Source: Barthelona sp. PCE (taxonomy: Eukaryota). From it: a stretch of DNA of 64,000 nt. The DNA lies in the NCBI GenBank assembly GCA_040285745.1, contig JAUFOR010000008.1:1550001-1614000 (forward strand), written 5' to 3'. Shown one piece after another: positions 4,000 to 56,647 of the stretch. The notes under the pieces are model-generated. The model was not told where the DNA came from. It saw only the letters and a program-made list of their open reading frames with translations, and searched no databases. Position numbers and translations under genes: made by a program. How positions within the stretch are numbered: position 1 is the stretch's first letter; every line of letters starts with the position of its first letter.

Positions 4000-4390
4000 G
4001 ACTAGAACAATAACAGTGAAAAATGGGTTAGCAAGTCACAACATGTGTAGCTACATAACTCGGTACATTTGTATCAATGTGTCGAGCTCTACTTGCCATA
4101 TTTTGCACGAATACTGTACTTAAAGTTAATTTGCATAAAGTTGCGGTTTTGAGGTTTTTTGATAAATCTTTTTATGGAACTTCCAGGATACTTTTAACAT
4201 GCAATTAATATTCACCATTTAAAAATACACTCACAACACGTGTGAATTCATACCCTAATCGTAAAAATATTGGAGTAAAATTAAAGTTAACGTGCTGATG
4301 TTTGAACTAAATAAAACCTGTGGTAACAGGTGTGAGTTGTTTGTTTACACGTGAAAAAGGAAATAGAATCCTATTTATTCCATTGGATGA

Positions 4391-7846: not shown

Positions 7847-8281
7847 AGAGAGGATCTCATCCCGATCAACCGAGACATGGGTGCTTCTCGCAGGATGGCG
7901 CAGCTTAAAGGCGTTTGTGATGAGCAGTGCATGATGAAGAGCAGTTTTAGATACGCGTTCCATCGTTCCTGCCACGTGGTGTACCTGGATTGTGCACGGG
8001 GTACTTGCGATATGCGAGATGAGTGTCATTGCCGACCAAACGTGCCTGAATGATTGGAACGGGCATCGCACAATAAAAATACCCGATGGTTTGTGCATGT
8101 ACATAACGCTGATCTTGGCAGCCTTTACGCGACCAATAAGCCCGAACACGCGACCGATCACGTGCTTTATTTCGAATGCAACGTCCTTTTTTGTATAATC
8201 AGTGAATATTCCCCCATTTTGTACAACATCATTGTGAAAGAGTGCTTGGCAGCAAAAGTAGCGTCGTTTTGTACGTACCAT
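7835..8281 (-). CDS. POP5: RNase P/MRP subunit POP5 (Rpp14/Pop5 family)
   Basis: MVRTKRRYF start (ATG 8281), FGLIG, FIVRC, VWSAMTLI, HVAGTM; 3' end overlaps the convergent gene by 12 nt. Confidence 0.85.
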   Translation of the reverse strand: MVRTKRRYFCCQALFHNDVVQNGGIFTDYTKKDVAFEIKHVIGRVFGLIGRVKAAKISVMYMHKPSGIFIVRCPFQSFRHVWSAMTLISHIASTPCTIQVHHVAGTMERVSKTALHHALLITNAFKLRHPARSTHVSVDRDEILSLLG

Positions 8282-24827: not shown

Positions 24828-25766
24828 CTACATCATAGCGAACTTCTTCTTCTTCAGACTGATCTCCTGAGCCTCAACACCGAGAACGTTGAAACGAACA
24901 GTCTTAGAAAGAGGACGGCACTCACCAATGGTAACAATATCACCATCCTTGCAACGGTAAGCGGGGGAGATGTGAGCGGGAACGTTGGAGTGACGCTTCT
25001 CGTATCTGTTGTACTTCTTGATGTAATGAAGGTAATCACGACGGACAATAATGGTACGCTTCATCTTGGAAGAGTGAACAATACCACGAAGAATACGGCC
25101 ACGAATGGAGACGTTACCGACGAAGGGGCACTTCTTATCGATGTAAGTACCGTTAATGGCGGTCTGAGGGGTCTTGATACCAAGACCAACCTCCTTAACA
25201 AAGCGAGTGGCCTTCTTGCCCTTCTTAAGAGACATGTTCTTACCAACGAAAATGGTAGGTTGCTTCTGGAAGCCAGCTTCAGTTTGAATCTAGGTATTAG
25301 TTAAGTATGGACTAAAAATGCAAATATTTAGGCAATTGTAAATGAGTATGTGCTATACTAGGGAGCAGTACGGGGATACCACCCAACTAGATATAGCATA
25401 CGATAGAAAAACAGTACCAAGAAGTAGTAAATAAAACCTCAGTACCCCTTGCGTTTTGAACCGTTTATGTAATGCGATCACGCATCGATTCGTGCATATA
25501 TTTGGTTTGGGTGTGTATATATGCGTTTCAACAATTTTGGGGATTGTATTTCTGATATATATCTTTGGGGAAGATATACATCTATTTGAAACTTGGGAAT
25601 CCATGCCACGCCATCCCGTTTATATCAGGACAAGCATAAACGACTGTTTTAGAAACTACAAAACACATAAGAAAAAAAAGCTCTATATACCAACGGAGAA
25701 AAGGCTTTTGATGGGGATAAACCTTTTCGCCAGCATGCTTGCATTAAAAATACATACATCAGACAT
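24828..25766 (-). CDS. RPS11: 40S ribosomal protein S11 (uS17); exons 25766-25758 and 25289-24828 (156 aa)
   Basis: Spliced N-terminus [17 protein letters not shown] restores the conserved S11 start; [28 protein letters not shown]. Confidence 0.95.
25290..25757 (-). other. Spliceosomal intron in RPS11 (468 nt, phase 0)
   Basis: GTATGT...ACTAATACCTAG; removal gives an in-frame conserved protein. Confidence 0.9.
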
Positions 25767-41300: not shown

Positions 41301-44300
41301 TTATTTGCTTTCAGAAAAGTACTCGTAATACTGTTCAGTTGCAGCTGGTCCTCTTGGGCTGTCTGGGATCTCTGATTTGCGTGATGCCAACAACAGCTGG
41401 ATATCAGAATGTGCTGTATCTGTAAATTTAGGACTGGTTAAAGGTGAAGTATTGTTTGAGAAACTTGAAAGATTAAGCTGCAAATCTTCAAAACGGCGGG
41501 TACGCTTGCTGCTCCTGGGGCGTGATTGTGATCCTGGGCGTGATGAAGTGAAGCTAGTGCGTGATTTGGGACGAGCACTACCCAGTTTGGAGGAAGGTGG
41601 CGGACTTCCATCAAAGAAGTTATCTTCCAAATTAGGTAAGAGCTCTCGGTCCCTCTCAATACGTTTGAGAAGCGCCTTTTTAGAGCGTTTCTCCTTTGCC
41701 AACTGTTTCTCCAACGAGGCTACCTTGCGTTTATAACGCGAGACCTCATCAACAGTGTGCGACTCGCTATTCTTCTCTCTATCCCTCAGCTTCTGTAGAG
41801 CAGCATCCTTGGCCTTGAGCTCCAACAACAGCTTGTCGATATCGAGCTTATCAAGTCGAGCAAACTTCTCGAGTTTATCCTCAAGTTCTTGCAACTTACG
41901 CTCACGTGATACCTTCCACTGTAGCAGGGCAAGCTTACCCTTCTCCTTGACCTGTAAATCACGTTCAACAACGGTCAATTTTCCTTGCAACATATCTACT
42001 TGTTGTTGCAAAGTTGAAATACGGTTCTTAAGTACAATCTCACGGCGTTTAAGCAGCTGCTCATAGAAACTGACACTCTGCTCCAGCTCAGACTTCTCAA
42101 TCAACAAGGAACGCCTCTCCAACTCCCGATCGTTCTCATCACCCTTGAGCGTGAGGTCCTGAACCATTTTTTCGTTTACCTGACGCGTCTCCAGGTCAAT
42201 AACCTGTTTTGTGAGTGAATGAACCTTCTCCTCCAAGCGAAGTTGAATATCGTTCTTCTCCTTGATATTTGTCAAAATGTTCTCCTCAGCCAATCGTTTA
42301 GAAACGGAATTTAGCGTGTTCATCTTGATTTCGTACAGTTTCTCAAACACGTTCTTACCCATCTGTGTCTGGAAGGTTTGATATGAGCCCTTGAGCGAGT
42401 TGATCTTTCCAATGAGGTCTCTGATGGTCGAATCGTACTTTTTCTGCATCTTAAGCTCTGTTTTCTCAACCAGGGAATGTGCGTTGGCCTCCATAATACC
42501 AATCTGTCCCTCAAGACGACTCACCTCAAAGAGTGCAGTGTACGATCGATCAACCGACTCATGTTGAATTCGACGCTCAACGCTGTCGTTCATCGCGGAA
42601 ATGTCATACTCAAGCTGTTTGATGCGGTTCAGCGTGCCCTCAAGGAACGTTGTAAACATTCCCTCCAGGTTCTTCATGTCACTGCGCATGGTATCGACGG
42701 AAGTAAGCTGGTGACCGTAAAAGGCTACTGTGAAGTGCTTAAGTGTTTCGACCATCTTGGGACAGCTGATGATGAAATGTAAATCGTCGCTCTGGCCCAG
42801 CGGGTCGTAATCAAGTGTACCACATTGAAGTAATGAAGAAAATAGGTCGCGCATCAAATCTGAGCGCATGAGAAGGTCTCTGACAACGTCATCTGACTCC
42901 TTAGCAAGCTCCATAGACTTTCCGTAGCGCAGAACCTTGTGATAAACATCATCGCTCAATTTGTACAACATAATGTTCTCCGGGAGTCTGCCTTGTGCCT
43001 GTGACATCATGAACTCCTGACGGACACGACTCAACACCATCTGGCAGTATATGTGCTGATGCTCCAACAGGTTGACATGCATCATGTTCAGAAGAATGTA
43101 AGAGACGGCCCTCACGAACTTGAGCGGGTTTGCCTGCATGAACAACAGTAGCTGACCCATCTTGTCATATGTTGTAACGGGCATCTTCTCGAGTACATGG
43201 GACGGGCGCCAGCTGAAAACGTGACAAAGTGCTTCCTCCATGACAGATACTGGGGGCAGATCCACCTCATCCTCGCTGTCGAGTGAGGGCGTGATGTAGC
43301 TTTCAGGGATGGACATCTTGTCGAAAACAACAATGCGCATTATTGTTCCGAAAATGTCTCCAAGCGGAAGGTGAAGCGTCTCAAGCAAGTCTATGGAATC
43401 AAATGGGCGCTCTCCTGCGTCCTCTAGCTCCCTCTGCAGTACAAAAAACGCACTCATCCTCACCAATCCAATAAGGGCCTCGTAGTGGTCAAGATAATTG
43501 AGTGCTATCTTGCTGAATTCAATAGGTTCCGTCTCTGGGTTCATGAGCCCAGCCTCGTTTGACACCTCGTCAAGCAAAAGCTCAAACGACAAGTGCTCAG
43601 CGCCCATCGCCATACGGTATGCCATGGGCAGGCGCTGGTACAATTCCATGAGCTCTTCATAGTTTGAGAGATGGAATATACGACAGATACGGTCGAGCAA
43701 CCTGACCTGACAGCGCGCATACTCGATTTGCTGCATTCTGTCCTTTGTTGTGTTTTGATCTTTCTCATTCTCCGTCAGCGGAGGGATCGAATTGGACTGG
43801 ATAACGTTGTGCCTGATGTGGATAATCTGCATGCGCGCGAACCTAAACAGGAGCTCAGACTGCAGTGCGAAATACTGCAAAAGCTCATCTACTGCAATGC
43901 GCTCTGTGTTGATATCCTGCATGTCAAGAAGGTTCGCAAATAGCTTTCCAATTGTGCTAGACACGATTGCAGGTTCAAACGATGGGTTTCCGAGCATGAA
44001 GGCCTCAAAAAAGTCGGCCAAAAGGGAGAAATACTGAACGTTGATCGACAGGAGCTTGACGCGATCTTGCAATTCAACGTCTTGGTACAGAGTGATAACG
44101 TCGTTAAGAGATGGTACCTCGAGCAGCGCGGATGTCTTCACGACAAATGTGGTTTGCAAGAAGTAATGCTCACTCTTATCAATGTCTACATTACCGTCGG
44201 CATAGGGGTCGAATGAAGCATCTATTTCAGATGGTTTGAATACTTTCAGGTACGAAGGGCGGGTGATAGACAGTGGGTGGAGCACCTCACTGTCAAAATC

Positions 44301-47300
44301 ATCAAATAAACGTCGGACTCTGTTAAGATTGGTGTTTAGCATCCTTCGCAGATACATGGGCTTGCATTCATCAATGAAATTACTGTAGAATCCAAATATA
44401 AGTTCCTCAAGGCGATCAGTTGTGAGCTCAACGTGCTGATATCTCTTCAGCCAAGCGTTTCGCAAATTTACCTTCGTCTTTGATATTGAGTAAAAATGTC
44501 TCGAAATAACACTTAAAAACTTCTTCCTAAAGATACGAATGACCTCTTCGTCAACTCTCTGCATCTCAGCCTCGGTTGTAACGTGCTCGGTGAGGAATGC
44601 ACGATCAATGAAGAACTGAAGATAGTTGAGATAATAAATATCGACGAACAGGCAATGATATCGTGTGACAATATCATAGATGGTCAGACACATCTTTTCA
44701 ACGAGCAAACCAATGCCTAAATGATGGATGTGATCTGTTGAGAGCCGCACCTCAAGCTTCGGATCAGTGATCATATAATCATCATCAAACTCATCAATAG
44801 CATGGCTGTTACCATCAAACGTAAAGTCTGATGTGAAGGGCGTGGGACCATCTGTCTGGATGGACAACGTGGTTGCTTGCATCTCATATACAGTGCGGGA
44901 TAATTGCCCTCGGTACTGGATCGTTGTGAAGCGATGTTGCAGCACAACACTGGTGATTGCATTCAGGTATATCTGGACTTCTTTTGACACCTTGCCACGG
45001 GGTTTTTCGAGTGAAGCTTGCCACTGCTTGAGCTTGGGGAAACGCGAATAGTCAGGATATATCAGTTCGTCCACTAAAAGATTAACGGGGGTCTTGTTCA
45101 GGTAGTACTTGAGACGCTCGTTGAGCTCAAACGGGTCTGTCTGCTTAAATATAAGGGTGTCTTCGCTGAACTCTGATGGAATCGCAGCAATAGCATTCTC
45201 AAGCACCAAACAGTTCAAAACGCTGCGCTCGTGCAGAGTCCTGGGCTTTATGAGCTTCTCAAACTGATCGCGCTGATCACATATCGCATCATACAAGCCG
45301 AGAATTGAATCTAAGTTGTTAAATATCGTAAACAATTCGGTCTTGTGCGACTGGGGGCTCAGGGATATCAGTGGCAGAGGTGTGTCGGTGATTGCCTCAG
45401 GCAAACCGTGCAAGAAGTTGAGCTCCTTCAGATTGGGCGTCATTTTCTTTAAAAACAGCTTCTCTTCCTTAATAAGTCGATGTATAACATCACCAAAGAA
45501 GGTGGCTTCCATGTCAGCCTCGATGATCTGTATCCACCAGTCATTTAAAAAGTAATTCTTCGAAAAGTCCGTCTTGGGTGCTTGCTCACACATTGAAAGC
45601 ACATGCGTCGCCAGTTGCAGTCTGGCCTTTGTGAACAAGGAGTGGTTGAACATCTCCATAAATGAATTAATCCTCTTAATCTTTGCGCTCTCGAAATTAA
45701 AAGCTGCCTCCAAAACATCATTTAAAACACCAATATAATCGGGTTCCCGTTTTGCAAACACGTACTTATCCGGATCACTGACGTCCATGAACAGCTGGTC
45801 CTTGATTGAAGCGAATGCTTCTTGTTGGGACGAATTGAGTTTAACACCTCTCTCGAGCTTCTCAAGAGTGACCAAAACTTCAGCTGGATCGATGTTGGTG
45901 CTATAACTGTTGACAAAGTGGGAGGCTATACGCACAATAAATGAGAGATACTTGTTCCAATGCTTGATGGCCGTGTCATACACAATAAAGTTACCTTCAT
46001 CATCCCTTACCAGTTGGATATGATTGGCGCTGACTCGGACGTATGTATTGAGCCTCATGCCTTCCATGGTGTTCGTCTCCATCGCGTTGAGGTAAACAAT
46101 AATGTTGTGCTTGACACTCTCGAGATAGTTGAAAAAGAAGAGCAACTTGCTAATGATCTGGCGCAACTTGAGGTGCCTCAACAGATAGATACAAAGAAGA
46201 GGGTTAGTTGGCACCTCTGTGTTGAGCAACGAAAGAACGTTTTCAACATGAGTCGTTTTGTGGTTCAAAGAGTGCACATATACATTCCAGCCGCGGATGG
46301 GATCAATCTGAGCCTTCTCGCGCAACCGCCTGATGACAGCATCCTGGTCGTCGTTGAACAAGAACGCCAACTCCGATTGTATATGAGTATTGATATCAAC
46401 ACTTGTGCCAGCCGTTGCTGTGAATATATCCATTGGTACCCGAAGCTCGCCTCCGATGATATCAAAGTCGAGGAGATCTGCGCTGTTAGCGTGATGCGTC
46501 TTGATACGATTAATGAGCAGAACCCCACCAGTCTCCTCGTAATTAGTGAGGCCGACATCGCTAACGAGCTTGAGCTTGAAATTATTCGTCTCCTTCGGCG
46601 ACTCGTCAACGATACGGCGCCACGCGTCACTGTGTGTTGACTCCTTATACTCCACCGTCTCGCTAGCGTTCATACGATTAATTATCGTTGAAAACGATGG
46701 AATCGCGCTTGCTTCAGCGCAAATAGCCGCAATGTCAATGTTCTGGACATTTCCGAGCTTGATACCGCCCTTAAAGAACTTAAATAAAGCGTCTAAGCTC
46801 TCGTTTTCGGATAAAAAGAATTTTGATACTTCAAAGTAAAAATTCTCCTCGTTATCTAACGAAATACCAAGTAAAAACTGGTTACGGAGCACCTTCAGCT
46901 CATCCATCATGCGTGCGCGGCCCGAATGATACAGAGGATGGGTCATCAACTGCGATTCGAGGGGAATGCGTCTGAACAATGTCGTTGACTTCTGCGGACC
47001 AACATGGATGTGTTTGATCTTCTCAAAGTCAGACCAGATGCTGTATCGCTCTGTATCTAACAGACTGTTGATCTGAAGCTCCAATGGTTTCAAATGATTG
47101 ATGGCGTTGAGTCTGTAACAGATAAACCTCAGAGCGGGGATGCAGTCCTGCAACTGTGTCTCGGCGTTGATGTCCATTCTCCCCACTGTCTGTTTTGAGT
47201 GGGAAATCTCATTATTAAGATACGAGAAGCTATCGGTCACAATGCGGTGGATTGTGTCCAATTTGCCCTCCATGGTCGCCATCTCTGTGTCGGTGAGGTC

Positions 47301-47861
47301 GCACAGGCGGTGTAACAAGTGATGGAACCTTACCAAAAACAAGTACTTCTTGTTCGACAGCATGTCTTGATGCAACTTCGCAAAAGATCTAAATATCTCA
47401 CTGTTCTGGGGTATCACCTCGTTGAGGCTCTCGTTGGTGAGTGATAGAGAATCCAAATCGATCTCCTGTGGCTTGTACTTATCAAATACTTTGAACTTCT
47501 TCATCTCTTCCATACGATCTTTACGCAATTTTTTTATATCTGGAGCAGTTGTTACAGTGTGCACGAGAGGAATAGGCTCATTGTTGACATCTTTGAAAGG
47601 AGAAGCAAACAACTCACTCTTGAGAGCAAAAATTTCATTAATACTGCTTAAAACACGTTGAAGCTTCATTTCACCTTGTGTTACTCGCAGATTACATCCC
47701 TTTATCAGGTTTTCAGTCACAATTTCGGATTCTGAAACTTCAGAGAGACTGCGGATGGCGTTAAGTTCGTTTTCGTGACCTTTGACGAAGCAAAATGCAT
47801 CTTTAAAGCTCTCATCCAGAAACTCCTCAAAGGACAAACCCTTTCTTGCTGAATTAAACAT
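41301..47861 (-). CDS. Very large helical protein with C-terminal coiled coil (possibly CCDC162-like)
   Basis: About 2190-aa ORF from ATG 47861; family call tentative. Confidence 0.7.
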   Translation of the reverse strand: MFNSARKGLSFEEFLDESFKDAFCFVKGHENELNAIRSLSEVSESEIVTENLIKGCNLRVTQGEMKLQRVLSSINEIFALKSELFASPFKDVNNEPIPLVHTVTTAPDIKKLRKDRMEEMKKFKVFDKYKPQEIDLDSLSLTNESLNEVIPQNSEIFRSFAKLHQDMLSNKKYLFLVRFHHLLHRLCDLTDTEMATMEGKLDTIHRIVTDSFSYLNNEISHSKQTVGRMDINAETQLQDCIPALRFICYRLNAINHLKPLELQINSLLDTERYSIWSDFEKIKHIHVGPQKSTTLFRRIPLESQLMTHPLYHSGRARMMDELKVLRNQFLLGISLDNEENFYFEVSKFFLSENESLDALFKFFKGGIKLGNVQNIDIAAICAEASAIPSFSTIINRMNASETVEYKESTHSDAWRRIVDESPKETNNFKLKLVSDVGLTNYEETGGVLLINRIKTHHANSADLLDFDIIGGELRVPMDIFTATAGTSVDINTHIQSELAFLFNDDQDAVIRRLREKAQIDPIRGWNVYVHSLNHKTTHVENVLSLLNTEVPTNPLLCIYLLRHLKLRQIISKLLFFFNYLESVKHNIIVYLNAMETNTMEGMRLNTYVRVSANHIQLVRDDEGNFIVYDTAIKHWNKYLSFIVRIASHFVNSYSTNIDPAEVLVTLEKLERGVKLNSSQQEAFASIKDQLFMDVSDPDKYVFAKREPDYIGVLNDVLEAAFNFESAKIKRINSFMEMFNHSLFTKARLQLATHVLSMCEQAPKTDFSKNYFLNDWWIQIIEADMEATFFGDVIHRLIKEEKLFLKKMTPNLKELNFLHGLPEAITDTPLPLISLSPQSHKTELFTIFNNLDSILGLYDAICDQRDQFEKLIKPRTLHERSVLNCLVLENAIAAIPSEFSEDTLIFKQTDPFELNERLKYYLNKTPVNLLVDELIYPDYSRFPKLKQWQASLEKPRGKVSKEVQIYLNAITSVVLQHRFTTIQYRGQLSRTVYEMQATTLSIQTDGPTPFTSDFTFDGNSHAIDEFDDDYMITDPKLEVRLSTDHIHHLGIGLLVEKMCLTIYDIVTRYHCLFVDIYYLNYLQFFIDRAFLTEHVTTEAEMQRVDEEVIRIFRKKFLSVISRHFYSISKTKVNLRNAWLKRYQHVELTTDRLEELIFGFYSNFIDECKPMYLRRMLNTNLNRVRRLFDDFDSEVLHPLSITRPSYLKVFKPSEIDASFDPYADGNVDIDKSEHYFLQTTFVVKTSALLEVPSLNDVITLYQDVELQDRVKLLSINVQYFSLLADFFEAFMLGNPSFEPAIVSSTIGKLFANLLDMQDINTERIAVDELLQYFALQSELLFRFARMQIIHIRHNVIQSNSIPPLTENEKDQNTTKDRMQQIEYARCQVRLLDRICRIFHLSNYEELMELYQRLPMAYRMAMGAEHLSFELLLDEVSNEAGLMNPETEPIEFSKIALNYLDHYEALIGLVRMSAFFVLQRELEDAGERPFDSIDLLETLHLPLGDIFGTIMRIVVFDKMSIPESYITPSLDSEDEVDLPPVSVMEEALCHVFSWRPSHVLEKMPVTTYDKMGQLLLFMQANPLKFVRAVSYILLNMMHVNLLEHQHIYCQMVLSRVRQEFMMSQAQGRLPENIMLYKLSDDVYHKVLRYGKSMELAKESDDVVRDLLMRSDLMRDLFSSLLQCGTLDYDPLGQSDDLHFIISCPKMVETLKHFTVAFYGHQLTSVDTMRSDMKNLEGMFTTFLEGTLNRIKQLEYDISAMNDSVERRIQHESVDRSYTALFEVSRLEGQIGIMEANAHSLVEKTELKMQKKYDSTIRDLIGKINSLKGSYQTFQTQMGKNVFEKLYEIKMNTLNSVSKRLAEENILTNIKEKNDIQLRLEEKVHSLTKQVIDLETRQVNEKMVQDLTLKGDENDRELERRSLLIEKSELEQSVSFYEQLLKRREIVLKNRISTLQQQVDMLQGKLTVVERDLQVKEKGKLALLQWKVSRERKLQELEDKLEKFARLDKLDIDKLLLELKAKDAALQKLRDREKNSESHTVDEVSRYKRKVASLEKQLAKEKRSKKALLKRIERDRELLPNLEDNFFDGSPPPSSKLGSARPKSRTSFTSSRPGSQSRPRSSKRTRRFEDLQLNLSSFSNNTSPLTSPKFTDTAHSDIQLLLASRKSEIPDSPRGPAATEQYYEYFSESK

Positions 47862-48256
47862 GTAAGCCCGTTGAATATGAGTAGAATACAAGAAAACTTG
47901 TTACAAATTTGACTTACAGGCTCAATTCTGTGCCACCGTGGCCATCTGCTCGTTGCGTCCTAGATTTAACCGCGTGCAAACTGAGAATGTTTTTACTGTG
48001 TTTTGCAGTTTTTTTGCTTTATTTATAATAAATATTGTACCTAAAAAGACTCATACGTATCGCTTCTCATCGTTACATCCAGAAGATCCGCCACAATATG
48101 CAAAAAAAAAAGAGTTATTGAAATACAACGCAAATAGCACACATATCAATATTCTCTCGACAAATAAGCCGAATGCCGACAAAAAACAAACGTTTGTGTA
48201 CGATTTTGACGAATTATGCCAATTTGGTTCGAACTTATATTATTGACTCTTTTCAA

Positions 48257-49870
48257 ATGTACTCGAGCACATTATTGTGTGTCGTCGTGGGCTTTTTTGC
48301 TGTTGTGGCTGCGCTAAATACTGATTATGCAGATCTACTGACTCGCGGTTACACAATTGATGAAGAAAATCCGAAAATGGCGCTGTATCGTGGCTCTGAT
48401 TACCAAGTTTTCAAGGAAGAAAACCCGCACTTCAAACCCGATGCTGCAAACGATGATACCGGACCAATGGCATTTATACCAAATTTCCTGGGTAACTTGA
48501 TGCCAAGTACATCTCGCCACAAACTTGTACCTATGGGATCAGGAAAATGCTTTGAAGAGATAAAAATGTCCCTAATCTTGAATGAAGAGAAGGCACAAAT
48601 GAACTTAAGAATGGTATTGGGATATCCAAAGGGGTTCACTTGCACTGATCATTTTCTTTTTCTGACGCTTTCTGATTACTACACCAGTCTCGCTCGTTTT
48701 CGAAGTGGAGTGTTTGATATCGTACTGAAGGGCGTTCAGAAATCAGAATTTAAGTACATTCGTGAAAACGGTCTAGTTGTTTTTGCAGCCTCTAAAGGAA
48801 TCTTTGGAACAATTTCCTCGCTGTACAGTACTGCACGTCTTTTCATTGGCTCGCAGACAGAGGAAAACGTAATTAAACACATGCGCAGTTACGGATTCAA
48901 GTTGGAGAAACGTCACCGCTACAACATTCCATTTCCCAAAGAGCGCCTTCGCAGTGGAGATGTGTTCTTCTTGTTTGACCCCTCAGGCATCGATGCTCTG
49001 ATAGGTCAAGGAACAGCGTCGCTCATTGGACACGTTGGTATCGTTGTTGAAAATGAACAAGGCGTGAAAGAAGTCTGCGAATCTGTTTCGTATGAAGCAT
49101 TCGTTGATCCAGCAGAGGCTGAGTTGCCTACAGGTATCATTTGCACAGAGTATATTGAGTTCATGAAGTTACAAGAAACTAGTAGACACATTGTTATCGG
49201 ACGTCTGAAGGATGAGCTGAGCGAGAAATTTATTTCAAACATAGAAAAGGTTCGAACCTTGTACAGAGAGTTAAAGACGCCTTACTACGGTTACGAGGGG
49301 CTCTTTGGATCATTCATTGACGTTCCAGGAGATGCGAATATGCCCTTCGGCACCACTGAAATGCTAGGCTTTATTATCCGTGCGGCACACAGTATGAAGC
49401 CTGAAGTCATCGATCTGCTATTTAAGCAGGGCATTGCATGGCGCCTTGGTTTTGACCATGATGTAGCCTGGGATTTTGATGATCTTATGATATATACACA
49501 GCATATGAAGAAGCAACTGGGTGAGATTATGGCTGTTGTTGAGAACCAGGGCCGAAAGTACACCAAGAGCAACGGAGATCAAGTCGAAAGTATGATCTGT
49601 TCTGCCTTTGTAATGAGAATGCTTCAAGCCGGTGGTGTATTCGGTGACCTTGAGTTTAATGCCCCTGAAACAACACCAGCTGATCTCAGCTATCTGGACA
49701 TATTCGATAAGGATATCGCATGGCCAGCTGAGTTTTGCACTGGAACTGAACGGGGTTACTGTCAGTTCTGGGGTGCTTTAGATTTTGATCTTCCCCACTT
49801 CAGTACCATCAAACCGTATGCCCATATGAATGAGCGCTGTCCAACTGATCGCTTCCACATGAAATGCTAA
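48257..49870 (+). CDS. Secreted permuted papain-like (NlpC/P60, YiiX/YebB-like) hydrolase, paralog 1
   Basis: Signal peptide; RSGDVF, IGHVGIV, EVCES, later MICSAFV (His before Cys), TPADL. Confidence 0.75.
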   Translation: MYSSTLLCVVVGFFAVVAALNTDYADLLTRGYTIDEENPKMALYRGSDYQVFKEENPHFKPDAANDDTGPMAFIPNFLGNLMPSTSRHKLVPMGSGKCFEEIKMSLILNEEKAQMNLRMVLGYPKGFTCTDHFLFLTLSDYYTSLARFRSGVFDIVLKGVQKSEFKYIRENGLVVFAASKGIFGTISSLYSTARLFIGSQTEENVIKHMRSYGFKLEKRHRYNIPFPKERLRSGDVFFLFDPSGIDALIGQGTASLIGHVGIVVENEQGVKEVCESVSYEAFVDPAEAELPTGIICTEYIEFMKLQETSRHIVIGRLKDELSEKFISNIEKVRTLYRELKTPYYGYEGLFGSFIDVPGDANMPFGTTEMLGFIIRAAHSMKPEVIDLLFKQGIAWRLGFDHDVAWDFDDLMIYTQHMKKQLGEIMAVVENQGRKYTKSNGDQVESMICSAFVMRMLQAGGVFGDLEFNAPETTPADLSYLDIFDKDIAWPAEFCTGTERGYCQFWGALDFDLPHFSTIKPYAHMNERCPTDRFHMKC

Positions 49871-50250: not shown

Positions 50251-51783
50251 ATGTCATTCTTGGATATCAGGATGAATATTTCATTGGTTTTATTAGTAGT
50301 TGTAATACTACCAAGAGTATATTCCATAAGAGATATCAACATTAAGGGCTCTGAAGACAAGGCAAGCTTATGGTCACGTGTCTTATCGAAAACCGATAAA
50401 GAAGGTGAGTGGGAAAACGCATACGACTTCATTCCTACATATGCTGCTCATATACGTCCTCATAGTGATTATCATCTACCTTCTAACTTGGGAACGTGTT
50501 TTGATAACATAAATATACACGTTGTATTAGAATCAGACAGGGTAAAAGTAACAGTTAAGCTTTCAGACCCCAGGAAAAAGACATGTTCAGAACGTCTGCT
50601 TTTCCAAACCTTAACTCTCATAAATACACGTCTGTTCTTTCGTCGTGGTACCCATAATTTTGTATTTAAAAACGTAACCCAGGGCCAAAAAACATTCATA
50701 GAAACGCACGGTCTTATAGTTTCAGTTGCTCAGCGTTCTTTCCCAAAATCAATCAAAAAAATATACAAACTTTACCGTCTCTTTTCAGGAAAACTAAAGG
50801 ACTCTGAGATGTTTGAGTACTACAGATCGTTTGGTTATGCATTGGAACCGCGATATCATGCAGATCGAGTTTTACCCAAATCCTTGATTCCTAATGGTGC
50901 TGTTTTCTTCTCGTTTTATCCGAGTGTAACTGATGCATTCCTACTTACATTCACAGAAAATATCGTTGCACATGCTGCTGTAGCGTTCTGGGATGATGGA
51001 GAACTTTATATCGTTGAGAGTACTTTTTATGACGATGAATCGATGGATCTAAAGGGAATATTCCGCATGCCGTACGATGAATGGATTGAACTACAGACAG
51101 GTGATGACACACATATTGTGATGGTTCGATTAAAACAACACTACCAACAGCAGCTGGAGTCAAATATGGATGCGGTTTGGGAGTACTTCCATGATCATGT
51201 TTCCCCAGCATATGCATTTAAGAACTTTTACTATTCGGAGTTCAGTTGCTCAGGAGGACAGCATACACCTGCTAATGTTCACAGTGATTCGTTTTCCTTT
51301 TTACTATCTATGGTACATCGATTTGCTCCAGAATTATGCCAAAAGCACTTCAGTGAGTCTATTGGGAGTCGGCTAGGAATCAGTGAAGCAAATGTAACAT
51401 GCGATATTTTACTGCACTCAATGGAAGAGCAAGGAACTTCATTGGCTCAAATTTTAAGTTCCCTGGAGCCTGATGAAAGTATATATAATGATGGTTTTCA
51501 GATGCACTGTGGTGCCATAGTTTATAAGCTGTTAAGCGTTGGTGTTGAAGATTTGAGAGCCATCACCGCCAATTTCTTTGATCCTCCTGATATCTCGTAC
51601 ATCGATATATACGATACAGAATACGTGTACCCTGCTGATCACTGCCCTGATTCGACGAACGGTGTGTGTCAATTTTATGGTAAGTATAAATTCGACCTTA
51701 GAAGTTTTTCCTCCGTTCCAATCAATCGTTTCAGACAATACAGTATTGATAAATGCCTGAGCTCTTTCCCAAGAACACATTAA
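50251..51783 (+). CDS. Secreted permuted papain-like hydrolase, paralog 2
   Basis: Collinear with paralog 1 (FIP, GxCF, YG..LE.R, AHAAVA, IVES, MHCGAIV, CQFYG). Confidence 0.72.
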   Translation: MSFLDIRMNISLVLLVVVILPRVYSIRDINIKGSEDKASLWSRVLSKTDKEGEWENAYDFIPTYAAHIRPHSDYHLPSNLGTCFDNINIHVVLESDRVKVTVKLSDPRKKTCSERLLFQTLTLINTRLFFRRGTHNFVFKNVTQGQKTFIETHGLIVSVAQRSFPKSIKKIYKLYRLFSGKLKDSEMFEYYRSFGYALEPRYHADRVLPKSLIPNGAVFFSFYPSVTDAFLLTFTENIVAHAAVAFWDDGELYIVESTFYDDESMDLKGIFRMPYDEWIELQTGDDTHIVMVRLKQHYQQQLESNMDAVWEYFHDHVSPAYAFKNFYYSEFSCSGGQHTPANVHSDSFSFLLSMVHRFAPELCQKHFSESIGSRLGISEANVTCDILLHSMEEQGTSLAQILSSLEPDESIYNDGFQMHCGAIVYKLLSVGVEDLRAITANFFDPPDISYIDIYDTEYVYPADHCPDSTNGVCQFYGKYKFDLRSFSSVPINRFRQYSIDKCLSSFPRTH

Positions 51784-52504
51784 TGTATGGCTTTTAACAA
51801 AATGTGATGAAGAAGCTAGCTATAGCCTGAATGAATATACACATATCCATTAATCTCTTTCAGACTTTTTACTGTTGTATGCAAACGTATATAACAGAAC
51901 AAAACGGAGTAAATATAAATTGTAATGATACAATACTGATAAATTCCCAATAATCAACATTTTCTCTTAATTTGCAATAAAGCAATTCTCTTTCAACGAA
52001 GCACGTACCATCATCAACATGGAAAACCTCAGTAGAGAATAAATAGGGGCCCAATCACAATCTTCGTGACTAATTCAATGTAGAATGGCAAACCCAAACG
52101 GAAAGACGTGGAAATACACCGGCAACGTTCTCTTCCCAACTATGCATTGAGCAACTGAAAATCCTACTACTCAGACGTGCGGCCTCCAGACTCTGAAAAT
52201 GCTAACTGTATGCTACATATACAATATCCATCTCAAATCTCAAAAAGAATCCTTGCCCCGCTTACCACTCATTAATACGGATAAGCTATAAAGAGAAACA
52301 GGTTAAAAAAGTGTTTACAAGCAGGAAAAAAGGGTTCTTTTTTTTCTGTTCAAATACCATGTTTCTGTTCAATTTATTTGGGATTTCATTGAGCAGAAAC
52401 CACGAATATGATACTAAAATGGACGAAATAGCACTTCTCCCCAAAAAAAGGGTAGTTTAGAGTGAAATCATATTATTTTTATTGGTTGGTTTCTGCATTC
52501 TATT

Positions 52505-52577
52505 ACCAACGTGGCGGAATGGCTAACGCGACAGTCTTAAGATCTGTTTTTCGCAGGTTCGATTCCTGTCGTTGGTA
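52505..52577 (+). tRNA. tRNA-Leu(UAA), atypical (5-nt variable loop)
   Basis: ACCAACG/CGTTGGT+A; D loop with GG; ACAGT-CTTAAGA-TCTGT; GCAGG-TTCGATT-CCTGT; T-run downstream. Confidence 0.85.
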
Positions 52578-52658
52578 CTTTTTTTCCTCTTCTTTTTTCC
52601 CACAACTCAACCAACAAACAACAACAAAAACATCAATCAATCAAAAGCCAAAAATGAA

Positions 52659-52730
52659 TATCCTAGGTAAGAATCGAACTCACGACCTTTTGATTAGAAG
52701 TCAAATACACTTCCGCTGTGTTACTAGGAC
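52659..52730 (-). tRNA. tRNA-Arg(UCU)
   Basis: GTCCTAG/CTAGGAT; TTTGA-CTTCTAA-TCAAA; GTTCGATT. Confidence 0.93.
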
Positions 52731-52809
52731 AACAATATCGGAAATCATCAACAAGAAGAAAGGTAATTAGCTAAATATACTATGATGTTGTTGAAAAAAG
52801 ATATCAAAA

Positions 52810-52881
52810 AGTGGTTACCGAGATTTGAACTCGGGACCCATAGATTTGCAATCTATTGCTCTACCCCTGAGCTATAACCAC
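52810..52881 (-). tRNA. tRNA-Cys(GCA)
   Basis: GTGGTTA/TAACCAC+T; ATAGA-TTGCAAA-TCTAT; GTTCAAAT. Confidence 0.95.
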
Positions 52882-52965
52882 TGCTACTGCCGGAAATTAC
52901 TCAATGAATACAACTAATGCTCATCTATATTCATTGTTTTCTAATGTTGGACAAAAACAATATAG

Positions 52966-53040
52966 CATCCCAACAGGGAATCGAACCCTGGACCCCATGA
53001 TTAAAAGTCATGTGCTACTACCAAACTGAGCTATTGAGAC
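52966..53040 (-). tRNA. tRNA-Lys(UUU)
   Basis: GTCTCAA/TTGGGAT+G; CATGA-CTTTTAA-TCATG; one extra T in the D arm (TAGTAGC). Confidence 0.92.
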
Positions 53041-53112
53041 ATATCGGAAAACAACAATACATTTAATTAAAACTTTATAATTTTTGAACGTCTCTGCTTT
53101 AATTGTCAAAAA

Positions 53113-53183
53113 TACACCCGGGGGGAATCGAACCCCCGGCACATGGATGGCAACCATGAGTTTTACCACTAAACTACAGGCGT
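53113..53183 (-). tRNA. tRNA-Gly(GCC)
   Basis: ACGCCTG/CGGGTGT+A; CATGG-TTGCCAT-CCATG; GGGGG-TTCGATT-CCCCC. Confidence 0.93.
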
Positions 53184-53268
53184 ATGTTTGTACGGAAAAT
53201 TAACTAAAATATTTTAAATTGACATACATATTGATACAATTATTTGTGTTGGTCAAAAATTGTTAGTT

Positions 53269-53340
53269 GGTCCCAACTGGGAATTGAACCCAGGACCTTT
53301 CCCACCCTAAGGGAACGAGATACCACTACACCATTGGGAC
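53269..53340 (-). tRNA. tRNA-Pro(AGG)
   Basis: GTCCCAA/TTGGGAC+C; TTCCC-TTAGGGT-GGGAA; GTTCAATT. Confidence 0.93.
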
Positions 53341-53606
53341 GCTTTGACTAAAGCGGAAATTTTGCATCATTTATTTTAAGATTCCTAATAATAGACCTAA
53401 AAAACTTGCGTAAGCGGGTTCTCGATTTCCTGTGGGTAGATTTGAATTTTAATTCCTTTAATGATACTTTTATGGGGTGTTAATATGAAATTTGATGAAT
53501 TTTAAAATCCAATTGAAAAAAAGGAAAAAAATGTATATTGGATAGATAGAGCTTTAATATTTGTTATTTTATGATAAAAATTCCATATAATACTGATAAA
53601 TTGTGT

Positions 53607-53844
53607 AAAAATTTATACTGAAGTAGGTTTATTGACGTCGGGGAACGCTCACGTGGGAAGGCTCGCCTTCACGTGTAGAGGGTGTTTCGTCCGGGAAGTG
53701 GCCTAAAACCCTTTTTTTTTGAAAAAGGTAAGAAAAACCGTATCGGGTCCTACGGACACCTACTACACATGACGGTTCGCTTCGTCCCCCTCCGCTGTTT
53801 ACTACCTCAAGTATAAAGTCTGAAGGCTAGCGCCTGTATGTCAC
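53607..53844 (-). ncRNA. Unidentified ~240-nt rod-shaped structured RNA candidate
   Basis: GC-rich island in AT-rich DNA; five nested long-range helices with G-U pairs only on the minus strand; TTTTCG upstream and T5 downstream. Confidence 0.6.
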
Positions 53845-54058
53845 CGAAAATTTAAAAATGGGTATAACAGCAAAACAAAAAATTATCATGTGTTGAGCGG
53901 AATAGCTTTGCTATACAGGGAAATACCAACCCGAGCAGACCTTATTCTGGTTTTCTGATTCTAATTCAATGTCTATGTTATTCATAGAAGGATAATGTTT
54001 ACAGTATGACAGATGACCCTTCTTATAAAAATATTTTTTTTATTCAAATTTTTTGTGT

Positions 54059-55987
54059 TTATTCAAAGCTATCAAAGGAAGAGAATAAGTATGTTATGTC
54101 ACAGGATGAAAGGAAATCAATGACATTAAATCTGTTGCACTTATTTATATACCTTTTTTCATTTGAGTCAAACTGTAAAATGTTCATCTCAATAACGTAA
54201 GTATTAATGTATATGTAAGCAACAGCAATACCCCGTTTAGGTGAGTGCAATTCAGCCCTAGGTGAGATGGGAAAAGTTTCAAAAATTCCATTAGCATCAT
54301 AGTGATAAATATTCTTCCCAAAAATTAGTACACCAATGTCAATAAAACAAGCCCTAGCGTTATAATTAGAAGGAATTTGAAACGTATCAAGAAGAAATTC
54401 CTCTGGATCAAACCTGAAAATATAACAAGAATACCGAGTAAAGACAACACACTCATACTCATCGCATGCGTATGGGTTAGCAACAAGTTCATAATCTTCA
54501 ATCCCATCTTTAATAATGTGTTCAACTCCTGTAGTTATTCTTCCTGTATGCTCATCTAGGATGAACATTGTGACCTTTTTCTTTTGATTAACCAAGAAAA
54601 TGCAATTACCAACCAATTTATGGCTTATGTATGCATCAATAATGTATTCCCTCCCGTTGACCGTAACCATCTTACTTTCGGGTGTGCAATTGTGATTGTA
54701 TCCGACAACGCAGTGTTTGCCATTATATTCAATTTTTGGGGAAATGAGCTGTTCTACGTGTCTATAAACCTCAATTCCTCCAATATAAAAGAAAAAGGTG
54801 TCATAGTTTATAGTTACAAAGATAATGCGCCATTGTTCAGCTGCAAGATCAAAAAATCGAACAATATTAAAGAGGGTGTGGTCTTTGTAATCTGGTGAAG
54901 GAGTTAACAGAATAGCCGAGTTGTTATAGTAGTCAGGGATGATAGGGAACTCCTTCAGCATGGTCATATTGATACTGTATGTTAAAGGTACGTTTGAGAT
55001 GCCTAACAAAAACATGCACTTGTACTCTTGCTTTCGTACTTGATAGAAGTTTGTTCTCCCTGTACGTCTATCGTACACGGTGCAATAGATCTCACCATCG
55101 AGCAAAACGTAATACCAGTCTGAAGAAAAAGTAAGCCTGGATTCACTTGGAGAATCGGGACTAGTGATGACTGTGTTGAAGATTTGGACAAACTTAGATC
55201 CCCTTGGTATGCTCATTTTCTGAAGATTCTTCAAGTATATTGTGACAAATTTTTTTTTCACTGTCGAAATTTGGTAGAGCTCTCCACATTCTTCAAATAT
55301 TGCATGGTTGTTACCCAAAGATAGGTCTAGAGCATATACGTTCTGACATAACTGCAACGGAATGTTGGAAATAAGTTGAGGTATGTTGTTGTGAAACTTG
55401 ATCATGAAGCTAATCATATTATCTCCCTCAAAAAGAGTATAAGGAACTCCATCTTGGACAAAACAATGCAAACGCTTGTATGATTGACGTAACGTGACTC
55501 TAAACACATTTGAATCAGTTTCAATATCATCAATTAAAAGTGAAACTTTTGGTTTCCAGTATTCTAAGCAGCTTAAAATGTTTTTTTGCTTAACTTCTTG
55601 AACCTTCATGTGCAATACAAACCGTCTGTTTAAGAAAAAACAGTCAGGAAACTTATATAAATCTACAGTTAAAAAATAGCGGTTTAAAAACGTAAACACA
55701 CCATTGCTAAATATAAAGAGCTCTACAACTGAATCTTTGCTTGGTAAACGGGATGTACGATGAAAAATGAACGGTTCAAGTAATGTAGGTTTCAGCATTG
55801 AAAATTCTTCAATGTTGGGTGGGAGTGATTCATCAATAGGCGGATCACGAATAAGTGTATGCACCTCCCTATCAATAAAACATAGCTTTCTGTTGTTTGC
55901 AGTTTCATCTGTAGAAACAAGAACCAAATTTTCATTTAAACGTGTAATAGATAAGCCCTGGGATACTATAGCTTTAATACGTGGCAT
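54059..55987 (-). CDS. Hypothetical beta-rich protein (probably lineage-specific)
   Basis: About 640-aa ORF from ATG 55987; no recognised motif. Confidence 0.65.
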   Translation of the reverse strand: MPRIKAIVSQGLSITRLNENLVLVSTDETANNRKLCFIDREVHTLIRDPPIDESLPPNIEEFSMLKPTLLEPFIFHRTSRLPSKDSVVELFIFSNGVFTFLNRYFLTVDLYKFPDCFFLNRRFVLHMKVQEVKQKNILSCLEYWKPKVSLLIDDIETDSNVFRVTLRQSYKRLHCFVQDGVPYTLFEGDNMISFMIKFHNNIPQLISNIPLQLCQNVYALDLSLGNNHAIFEECGELYQISTVKKKFVTIYLKNLQKMSIPRGSKFVQIFNTVITSPDSPSESRLTFSSDWYYVLLDGEIYCTVYDRRTGRTNFYQVRKQEYKCMFLLGISNVPLTYSINMTMLKEFPIIPDYYNNSAILLTPSPDYKDHTLFNIVRFFDLAAEQWRIIFVTINYDTFFFYIGGIEVYRHVEQLISPKIEYNGKHCVVGYNHNCTPESKMVTVNGREYIIDAYISHKLVGNCIFLVNQKKKVTMFILDEHTGRITTGVEHIIKDGIEDYELVANPYACDEYECVVFTRYSCYIFRFDPEEFLLDTFQIPSNYNARACFIDIGVLIFGKNIYHYDANGIFETFPISPRAELHSPKRGIAVAYIYINTYVIEMNILQFDSNEKRYINKCNRFNVIDFLSSCDITYLFSSFDSFE

Positions 55988-56647
55988 AAAATGCAATAAT
56001 AAAAAGCCCTTCTAACCTAAAAAAGTGAAAAAGGTGATAAAAGTAAAAACATGGTCCAATTTTGTTGTTTATTTTGGAGCAATTATTGCATTTTTTTCAT
56101 GTTAATTAGCTATTTTCAGACACAAATTTTTGTATTTGACTTGAATATACCCTTAATAGGTTCAACCTTTAGCAGTAGATCTTGAGGTTTTTGTATCTGA
56201 AAATTGCACTAAATCAATCATTTTCCTATGATATGAGATGTTCATAAAGCGCATGATATTGATATGTCCGGTGTAATTGAGTATTTCTAATTATTATTAC
56301 TCTAAACTATCGTTAAAATTGGTGCAAAAACTGAAGTAATTCAGTTTTTAATATCCTTCTTTTGTTTTGCTGTAATATTGGTCAAGTATTATGCGTGCCA
56401 ATCGCAATTTCAAAATTAAGCAGATAGATTGTCAAAGAAAGATTCTCTTTGTGCAGGGGAAAACTGTTTTTGGTTTACTTATTTCCACGCTAGTGAGACA
56501 TGCAAACCGGTGTATACTTAATGATTAACCTGCGAACGACCACTAGATAAGTAACTATATATCCACTTGCTTGCTATTTATATTCTTTCCTTTTCTTTTT
56601 ATTTTCCGCAAGTTTTGCTTTAACTTTCGCAAATAGTGTACTCAAAC

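Follow-up and report, generated by a model that had tools for sequence, protein, structure and literature searches.

In the 64-kb window of Barthelona sp. PCE DNA analysed here (contig JAUFOR010000008.1, positions 1,550,001 to 1,614,000, renumbered from 1), the minus strand of 53607-53844 carries a G+C-rich, non-coding candidate element of ~230 nucleotides (nt), which lies beside a cluster of transfer RNA (tRNA) genes and folds into one long, imperfect rod. Judged by its sequence, the element belongs to no described RNA family. The reading that we tentatively favour, by analogy with the genes around it, is that the element may be a lineage-specific small-RNA gene of the tRNA type, transcribed by RNA polymerase III (Pol III), whose product would be a rod-shaped scaffold RNA. 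Barthelona sp. PCE is an anaerobic, free-living metamonad, whose genome may be smaller than any other known from a free-living eukaryote. It measures 10.2 Mb in 8 contigs, with 40.3% G+C, 4.46% repeats and an unusual telomere repeat (PMC11316075). With so small a genome and so few repeats, idle non-coding DNA should be scarce, and one would hardly expect a non-coding, G+C-rich island of 230 nt to lie idle. The window itself is gene-dense, largely intron-free eukaryotic DNA of about 42% G+C, with open reading frames (ORFs) on both strands that are separated by spacers of 100-400 nt; they include a REV3-type DNA polymerase, an ISWI-type SNF2 ATPase, cathepsin L, the ribosomal protein uS17 and phosphatidylserine synthase. 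The candidate and the tRNA cluster share a gene-free spacer of 2.3 kb (51784-54058).

The fold of 53607-53844 was computed for both strands. On the minus strand the minimum free energy (MFE) structure reproduces the rod at -79.0 kcal/mol (z -3.82), none of 200 dinucleotide shuffles being as good, and the main helices have pair probabilities of 0.90-0.99. The plus strand reaches -71.3 kcal/mol (z -1.43), and the rod structure mirrored onto it -64.1 kcal/mol as against -79.0 on the minus strand; on these models the minus strand is favoured for the RNA. Neither arm alone folds better than its shuffles (5' arm, z +1.16; 3' arm, z -0.31, and z -0.04 when taken on the plus strand), and the stability of the rod therefore comes from pairing between the arms. 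At the DNA level this complementarity is poor: an inverted-repeat search found no exact 9-nt seed between the arms, and blastn with 7-nt words returned for the element only its match to itself within the window. Such a poor inverted repeat fits selection on RNA pairing, with its G-U and tandem G.A pairs, and not a recent DNA palindrome. Among the 69 pairs of the MFE fold 7 are G-U, 4 of them in the G+C-rich helices and 3 in the A/U-rich apex. A preliminary description of the locus had counted six and used them as an argument for the strand; the asymmetry is real, although the count is seven in the MFE fold and the argument is weaker than it had been made, since aligning the 5' arm globally to the reverse-complemented 3' arm yields 4 G-U-type and 2 A-C-type transitions overall. 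Those inside the helices are all of the G-U type, a result that is partly circular, the helices having been defined by pairing.

A base-by-base check on the minus strand, with pair probabilities taken from the computed fold of 53607-53844, bore out every helix listed in the preliminary description, as well as its 5' hairpin, tandem G.A and two apical T5 runs. The 5' hairpin, AGGC-GCUA-GCCU (53835-53824), has a mean pair probability of 0.98. Helix a, which closes the rod, pairs UUUAUACUUGAGGUAG (53817-53802; that is, UUUAUACU-U-GAGGUAG) with CUACUUCAGUAUAAA (53626-53612; CUACUUC-AGUAUAAA) in 8 + 7 base pairs (bp) around one bulged U, with pair probabilities of 0.90 and 0.99. Helix b joins GCG-GA-GGGGGACG (53795-53783) to CGUUCCCC-GA-CGU (53647-53635), its 3 + 8 bp (0.96 and 0.98) flanking the symmetric GA/GA loop that holds the tandem G.A. 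In helix c, UCAUGUGUAG (53772-53763) and CUACACGUGA (53678-53669) form 10 bp (0.98), and in helix d, GGUGU-C-CGU (53760-53752) meets ACG-AA-ACACC (53690-53681), where GGUGU/ACACC gives 5 bp (0.91) and CGU/ACG 3 bp (0.67). The apex (53691-53751) is A/U-rich and weakly paired (0.33-0.76); it contains T5 at 53737-53733, T5 at 53726-53722, A9 at 53720-53712, which is T9 when read on the plus strand, and T4.

Short sequence repeats are found along the rod. Two direct copies of GGACGAARC, GGACGAAGC (53779-53787) and GGACGAAAC (53684-53692), both on the minus strand, are its only occurrences in the whole window, where 0.63 would be expected. CAYGUG occurs three times within the element, and GUAGUA twice (53805 and 53766), each time at the end of a helix, with unpaired bases after it. 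The 3' arm can also form the competing local hairpin CACGUG-AAGG-CGAG-CCUU-CC-CACGUG (53649-53675) that had been described before; it contains two CACGTG palindromes and by itself reaches -10.9 kcal/mol (z -1.85), and forcing it into the rod gives -72.1 instead of -79.0 kcal/mol, a cost of 7 kcal/mol. CACGTG palindromes come in close pairs elsewhere in the window too: they are 20 nt apart in the element (53650-53675), 111 nt at 4237-4353 and 186 nt at 7973-8164, and the 16 copies in the window do not significantly exceed the expected 11.

The composition of the element sets it apart from its surroundings. Its arms have 58-60% G+C and the surrounding spacer 16-28%. Stretches of 60 nt with at least 47% G+C are rare among intergenic segments of at least 120 nt, and in the 2.3-kb spacer they are confined to the tRNA genes, the candidate and one other spot, at 52094-52200. 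This other spot is unstructured (z +0.16 to +1.03), so that structure is not something such islands share in general. Within the element the longest ORF, on the plus strand, has 44 amino acids (aa). This context, namely G+C-rich arms, freedom from ORFs, an upstream box and a T5 run, is stronger support than the fold itself. The second G+C-rich, ORF-poor island (52000-52230) has features of its own: a minus-strand TTTCCG without mismatch (52104-52099) and the only other GTAGTAGG of the window (52163-52170, minus strand); an Rfam scan of this island gave no match.

The box and the T5 run are best seen beside the neighbouring tRNA genes. Five of these (Pro, Gly, Lys, Cys and Arg; 52658-53340) lie on the minus strand in the same orientation as the candidate, as the preliminary description had it. 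In all five a perfect TTTCCG precedes the mature 5' end by 4-13 nt; this hexamer occurs only 24 times in 128 kb (both strands), so its presence at five of five genes is not chance. They likewise all end in T5 within about 10 nt of the 3' end, and in each case the run is followed by G, compared with 36% of the exact-T5 runs window-wide. From these sequences, TTTCCG and T5-then-G look like a lineage-specific Pol III upstream promoter or start element and terminator rule. The tRNA-Leu gene of the same spacer, on the plus strand (52490-52578), has a TTTCTG box and T7. When relaxed to TTT[TC]CG, the motif occurs 65 times in 128 kb and stands within 100 nt upstream of 5 of 35 ORFs, where about 1.8 would be expected; it was rejected as a general initiator on account of this low share and is mainly a feature of tRNA genes. 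The similar box that had been claimed for the candidate is there on the minus strand, as TTTTCG (53850-53845), ~10 nt before the 5' hairpin, though with one mismatch to the TTTCCG of the tRNA genes. The terminal T5 (53611-53607), a candidate Pol III terminator, abuts the last pair of the closing helix; it is followed by A, and the apical T5 runs by C, unlike the G that follows the T5 of the tRNA genes. A plus-strand search for a B box in the element gave a single match with two mismatches, which is chance level. Stretches that by eye resemble a tRNA D-arm (GCUCGGGUUGGUA) and T-arm (GGGTTCTCGATTTCC) are found on either side of the element, at 53900-53950 (minus strand) and 53400-53450 (plus strand); neither ARAGORN nor Rfam calls them, and they may be decayed tRNA genes.

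Covariance-model scans with Rfam release 15 found, at gathering scores, only six tRNAs in the whole window. At E<=10, nothing relevant was found in 901 nt around the element, and in 251 nt taken alone the sole match was a 12.8-bit CRISPR-repeat artefact. The scan that the preliminary description had proposed as a check has thus assigned the element to no known family, and its remarks that helix 8 of signal recognition particle (SRP) RNA and any RNase P/MRP signature are missing agree with what follows. SRP RNA is defined by a UGUNR motif within its Alu domain, by the 5e loop and helix 6, and by a helix 8 that holds an invariant A-C pair next to a G and has a conserved A in its apical loop (PMC4605306). 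No SRP model matches the element, whether at the gathering score or at E<=10 on 901 or 251 nt. A long, helix 5-like helix that joins the 5' and 3' parts is present. AGCA forms one side of the symmetric loop of SRP helix 8; no AGCA occurs in 53600-53850, so that the CAGG..GNRA..AGCA motif is absent, no symmetric loop like that of helix 8 is seen, and a loose CAGG..GNRA..AGC at 53808 cannot form the closing stem. Helix 6 of eukaryotes and archaea branches off beside helix 8; the rod is unbranched and without a helix 6, its sole side hairpin (53649-53675) lying mid-rod on the 3' strand in competition with helix c. In the 5' domain UGUNR was not found; the only UGUNR (UGUAG, 53767) is within helix c, ~75 nt from the 5' end. 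SRP identity is therefore not supported, only the rod shape being common to both, and the same holds for the earlier suggestion of a derived or fragmented SRP-like RNA.

Other families fared no better. In U2 small nuclear RNA (snRNA) the branch-site recognition sequence GUAGUA follows stem I, some 30-40 nt into the RNA. The candidate has a U2-like GUAGUA at 53805, ~38 nt from the presumed start and after the 5' hairpin, and at 53768 it has GUGUAGUA, the canonical U2 branch-site sequence. U2 was nevertheless rejected, because the U2/U6 helix I sequence (of the GCUAAGAUCA type) is absent from the element and the U2 model gives no match. In RNase P and MRP RNAs the 5' side bears the P3 hairpin, and a P4 pseudoknot is present; they were rejected since no model matches and only 10 nt separate helix b from helix c on the 5' strand, too few for a P3. 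For telomerase RNA a template was sought for the telomere repeat TATATGGTCT reported for Barthelona sp. PCE (PMC11316075): no match to 1.7 repeats with up to three mismatches exists anywhere in the window, and the three one-mismatch matches to a single repeat (25979, 37923 and 55329) are outside the element, so this family was rejected too. Box C/D and H/ACA small nucleolar RNAs were rejected because boxes C (UGAUGA) and D (CUGA) do not occur in the element and the fold is one 230-nt hairpin, unlike the hairpin-hinge-hairpin layout of H/ACA RNAs with their ACA 3 nt from the end.

We infer transcription, the polymerase, read-through of both apical T5 runs and a scaffold function, in the following form. 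The element would be an independent minus-strand gene, organised like the neighbouring tRNA units, with a TTTYCG box and a start at about 53843-53836; Pol III would probably transcribe it, and the oligo-T at 53611-53607 would end the transcript. The product would be a hairpin RNA of ~230 nt, with a small 5' stem-loop followed by the long imperfect rod in which the 5' and 3' ends are paired. Its 3' U-tract would adjoin the closing helix, an architecture like that of the stable Pol III scaffold RNAs (7SL, Y and vault RNA). This RNA would read through both apical T5 runs and might serve as a protein scaffold, with candidate protein sites in the repeats GGACGAAR (twice), GUAGUA (twice) and CAYGUG (three times), in the tandem G.A, and in the large asymmetric internal loop that separates helix b from helix c.

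Several observations weigh against this favoured picture. When 1062 windows of 240 nt were folded (step 120, both strands) and their MFE was regressed on G+C, the element ranked 2 of 1062 (residual z -2.47) in this background drawn from the window itself; it ranks 8 by raw MFE and 38 by the number of pairs spanning more than 100 nt, and the remaining top-ranked background windows are coding. By these ranks, a fold of such quality alone is expected a few times per 64 kb. The box is mismatched, and at 65 occurrences of TTT[TC]CG in 128 kb the chance of a match in one given 15-nt window is ~1%. The minus strand of the element lacks a B box, so that if Pol III transcribes it, the promoter would be upstream. 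Searches for relatives found none: a metagenome scan with the flanking 645-aa protein returned 54 stretches and no relatives, and a 24-nt exact scan had no match. The nearest database homologue of the ISWI-type protein of the window has 42-46% identity (best local alignment), and judged from the ISWI matches the protein database contains no close relative. Two T5 runs, the terminator type of the neighbouring tRNA genes, lie in the apex inside the element, and the first of them is directly preceded by a 5-bp local hairpin (CCGUA...UACGG). Finally, the footing of the proposed scaffold function is analogy. The new non-coding RNA put forward in the preliminary description is supported circumstantially, by a structured G+C-rich island that is free of ORFs, has a tRNA-like box and an oligo-T end, and matches nothing in Rfam.

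One alternative is that the element is not an RNA gene at all, and is instead a DNA-level element (for example a cluster of factor-binding sites or a boundary beside the tRNA genes), the remnant of a decayed gene, or a chance fold in a G+C-rich patch. We consider this somewhat unlikely. The place of the fold in the tail of the window background, by adjusted MFE and by long-range pairs alike, the two CACGTG palindromes 20 nt apart, the lack of structure in the second G+C-rich island of the spacer, and the tRNA pieces that look decayed by eye and are called by no tool would all agree with it; against it stand five collinear nested helices with pair probabilities of at least 0.9, G-U and tandem G.A pairing that is sensible only in RNA, a strand asymmetry that points to the strand of the tRNA genes, and a box and T5 that sit exactly at the ends of the fold. 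The apical T5 runs raise a different issue, namely whether one transcript is made or two. In budding yeast T4 is nearly non-functional as a Pol III terminator, T5 partial and T6 efficient, and a hairpin within 7 nt upstream boosts weak terminators (PMC9278858). Following this precedent, Pol III may terminate midway, at the two T5 runs of the apex with the hairpin before the first, and would then yield a 5'-arm RNA of ~105 nt alone, or two RNAs of ~105-110 nt, the second starting in the apex, that anneal in trans as the same rod. T5 is after all the terminator at five of five neighbouring tRNA genes, a weak box-like TTTTCA stands in the apex ahead of the 3' arm, and a two-piece cofold is stable, at -76.3 kcal/mol compared with -47.0 for both monomers. 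We still hold a truncated or two-piece product to be unlikely: each arm alone is unstructured relative to its shuffles, which would be unusual for a stable small RNA, the 3' arm has no clear box upstream, and the apical T5 runs are followed by C where all five tRNA runs are followed by G. Nor are we aware of any earlier case in which two small RNAs form a duplex of about 70 bp.

Three further explanations appear very improbable to us. In one, the element is a highly derived or fragmented SRP (7SL) RNA, with the rod as helix 5, the 5' hairpin as a reduced Alu domain, and the SRP54-binding part lost, remodelled or encoded elsewhere. The length of ~230 nt, the rod shape, the small 5' hairpin, the asymmetric internal loops and the Pol III-like setting are all of the right kind, the SRP Alu domains of ascomycetes and Cryptococcus also do without helices 3 and 4, and covariance models have missed real SRP RNAs before, for instance in basidiomycetes (PMC4605306). 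Those aberrant basidiomycete RNAs, however, still keep the A-C pair, the adjacent G and UGUNR (PMC4605306), whereas here no SRP model matches (the one match of any family listed on 251 nt having 12.8 bits), AGCA, the helix 8-like loop and the helix 6 branch are missing, and the single UGUNR is inside helix c. Nor, to our knowledge, has any cytosolic SRP without helix 8 been described. Just as small is the chance of two convergent paralogous small-RNA genes, one on the minus strand from 53843 to the T5 at 53733 and the other on the plus strand from 53612 to the T9 at 53712-53720, the apparent helices then being blocks conserved between the copies. The apex is indeed terminator-like in both directions, with T5 twice on the minus strand and T9 on the plus strand, and alignment of the 5' arm to the reverse-complemented 3' arm shows 67 identical positions, arranged in collinear blocks; but neither RNA beats its shuffles (z +1.16 and -0.04), the plus-strand copy has no box or 5' hairpin upstream, two adjacent transversions would be required at the GA/GA site, and on the minus strand every transition in the blocks is compatible with G-U pairing. 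In the third explanation the element encodes a long hairpin, transcribed from a tRNA-type promoter, that Dicer would process into small silencing RNAs. This would account for an imperfect stem of about 69 bp, and surveys of small RNAs of the RNA interference type exist for two metamonads, Giardia and Trichomonas (PMC2817412). Such a precursor, too, is hard to credit, as the stem is interrupted by large loops and nothing similar or complementary to the element occurs elsewhere in the 64 kb. At the speculative end, and with scarcely better prospects, the element might represent the Alu and helix 5 part of an SRP RNA that has been radically remodelled or split, its SRP54-binding helix 8 being lost or on a separate RNA, or in a milder version the RNA of a previously unknown, abundant and barthelonid-specific Pol III ribonucleoprotein (RNP).

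If the favoured Pol III gene is expressed, it would add a small structured RNA outside the known families in barthelonid metamonads. Neither a literature search under the genus name nor a term search of the main text of PMC11316075 gave an account of barthelonid non-coding RNAs. Through its protein partners such an RNA could lead to a new RNP, or to a measure of how far a universal one can diverge, and the element would also inform the Pol III promoter (TTTCCG box) and terminator rules of the organism. If it is not expressed, it is an ordinary chance fold of little interest.

Some observations were made on the protein genes of the window. Five of the eight large ORFs that were scanned (up to 2196 aa) have no Pfam domain (41301-47891, 442-3102, 48173-49870, 50251-51783 and 54059-55996), and both protein genes that border the tRNA-containing spacer are among them. 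Stop codons in 31 long ORFs of the window are TAA 23 times, TAG 7 times and TGA once. Reassignment of TGA to tryptophan was considered and dropped, because it gains only 5' extensions of ORFs and spurious overlapping ORFs; TGA therefore seems simply to be rare as a stop. The uS17 ORF has 135 aa counted from its ATG, compared with 156 aa for the database protein. Its frame (25236-25300, minus strand) runs upstream to an intron 3' end that reads ACTAATACCTAG, with a first exon above 25480. This intron end resembles the fused branch-site and 3' splice-site motif AACTAACAC reported for Giardia introns (PMC3510501).

Among known systems, a miniature inverted-repeat transposable element would share with the candidate a length of ~240 nt and two complementary arms. 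The candidate differs in being single-copy in the 64 kb, in having no 9-nt seed between its arms and no DNA-level inverted repeat (both within the window), in its G-U-dependent pairing, and in showing no evident terminal inverted repeats or target-site duplication. With SRP (7SL) RNA it has in common a size of about 230-300 nt, a Pol III-type gene, an imperfect helix joining the ends, a small 5' domain and a 3' oligo-U; it differs from it in its A/U-rich apex with T5 runs and in lacking helix 8 (AGCA, the symmetric loop with A-C and G, and a suitably placed GNRA loop), helix 6, the 5' UGUNR and a model match. Giardia offers a precedent within the metamonads. Its genuine snRNAs had initially been listed as 'Candidate' RNAs with no function assigned, replaced earlier computational snRNA candidates, and were identified by base-pairing logic together with experiment, including expression data and isolate-to-isolate covariation (PMC3510501). 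The branch-site sequence of its U2 is GUGUAGUU (PMC3510501). The orphan and highly divergent small RNAs of Giardia and the candidate both come from metamonads, the candidate as a prediction from sequence. Y RNAs and vault RNAs are small Pol III scaffold RNAs of ~80-140 nt with paired ends, and vault RNAs have internal A and B boxes. The candidate, at ~230 nt, without a B box on the minus strand and without an Rfam match, differs from both; it shares with them a closing stem made from the 5' and 3' ends, an adjoining 3' oligo-U, and internal loops and bulges as presumed protein sites, and this analogy needs no conservation of primary sequence across a family.

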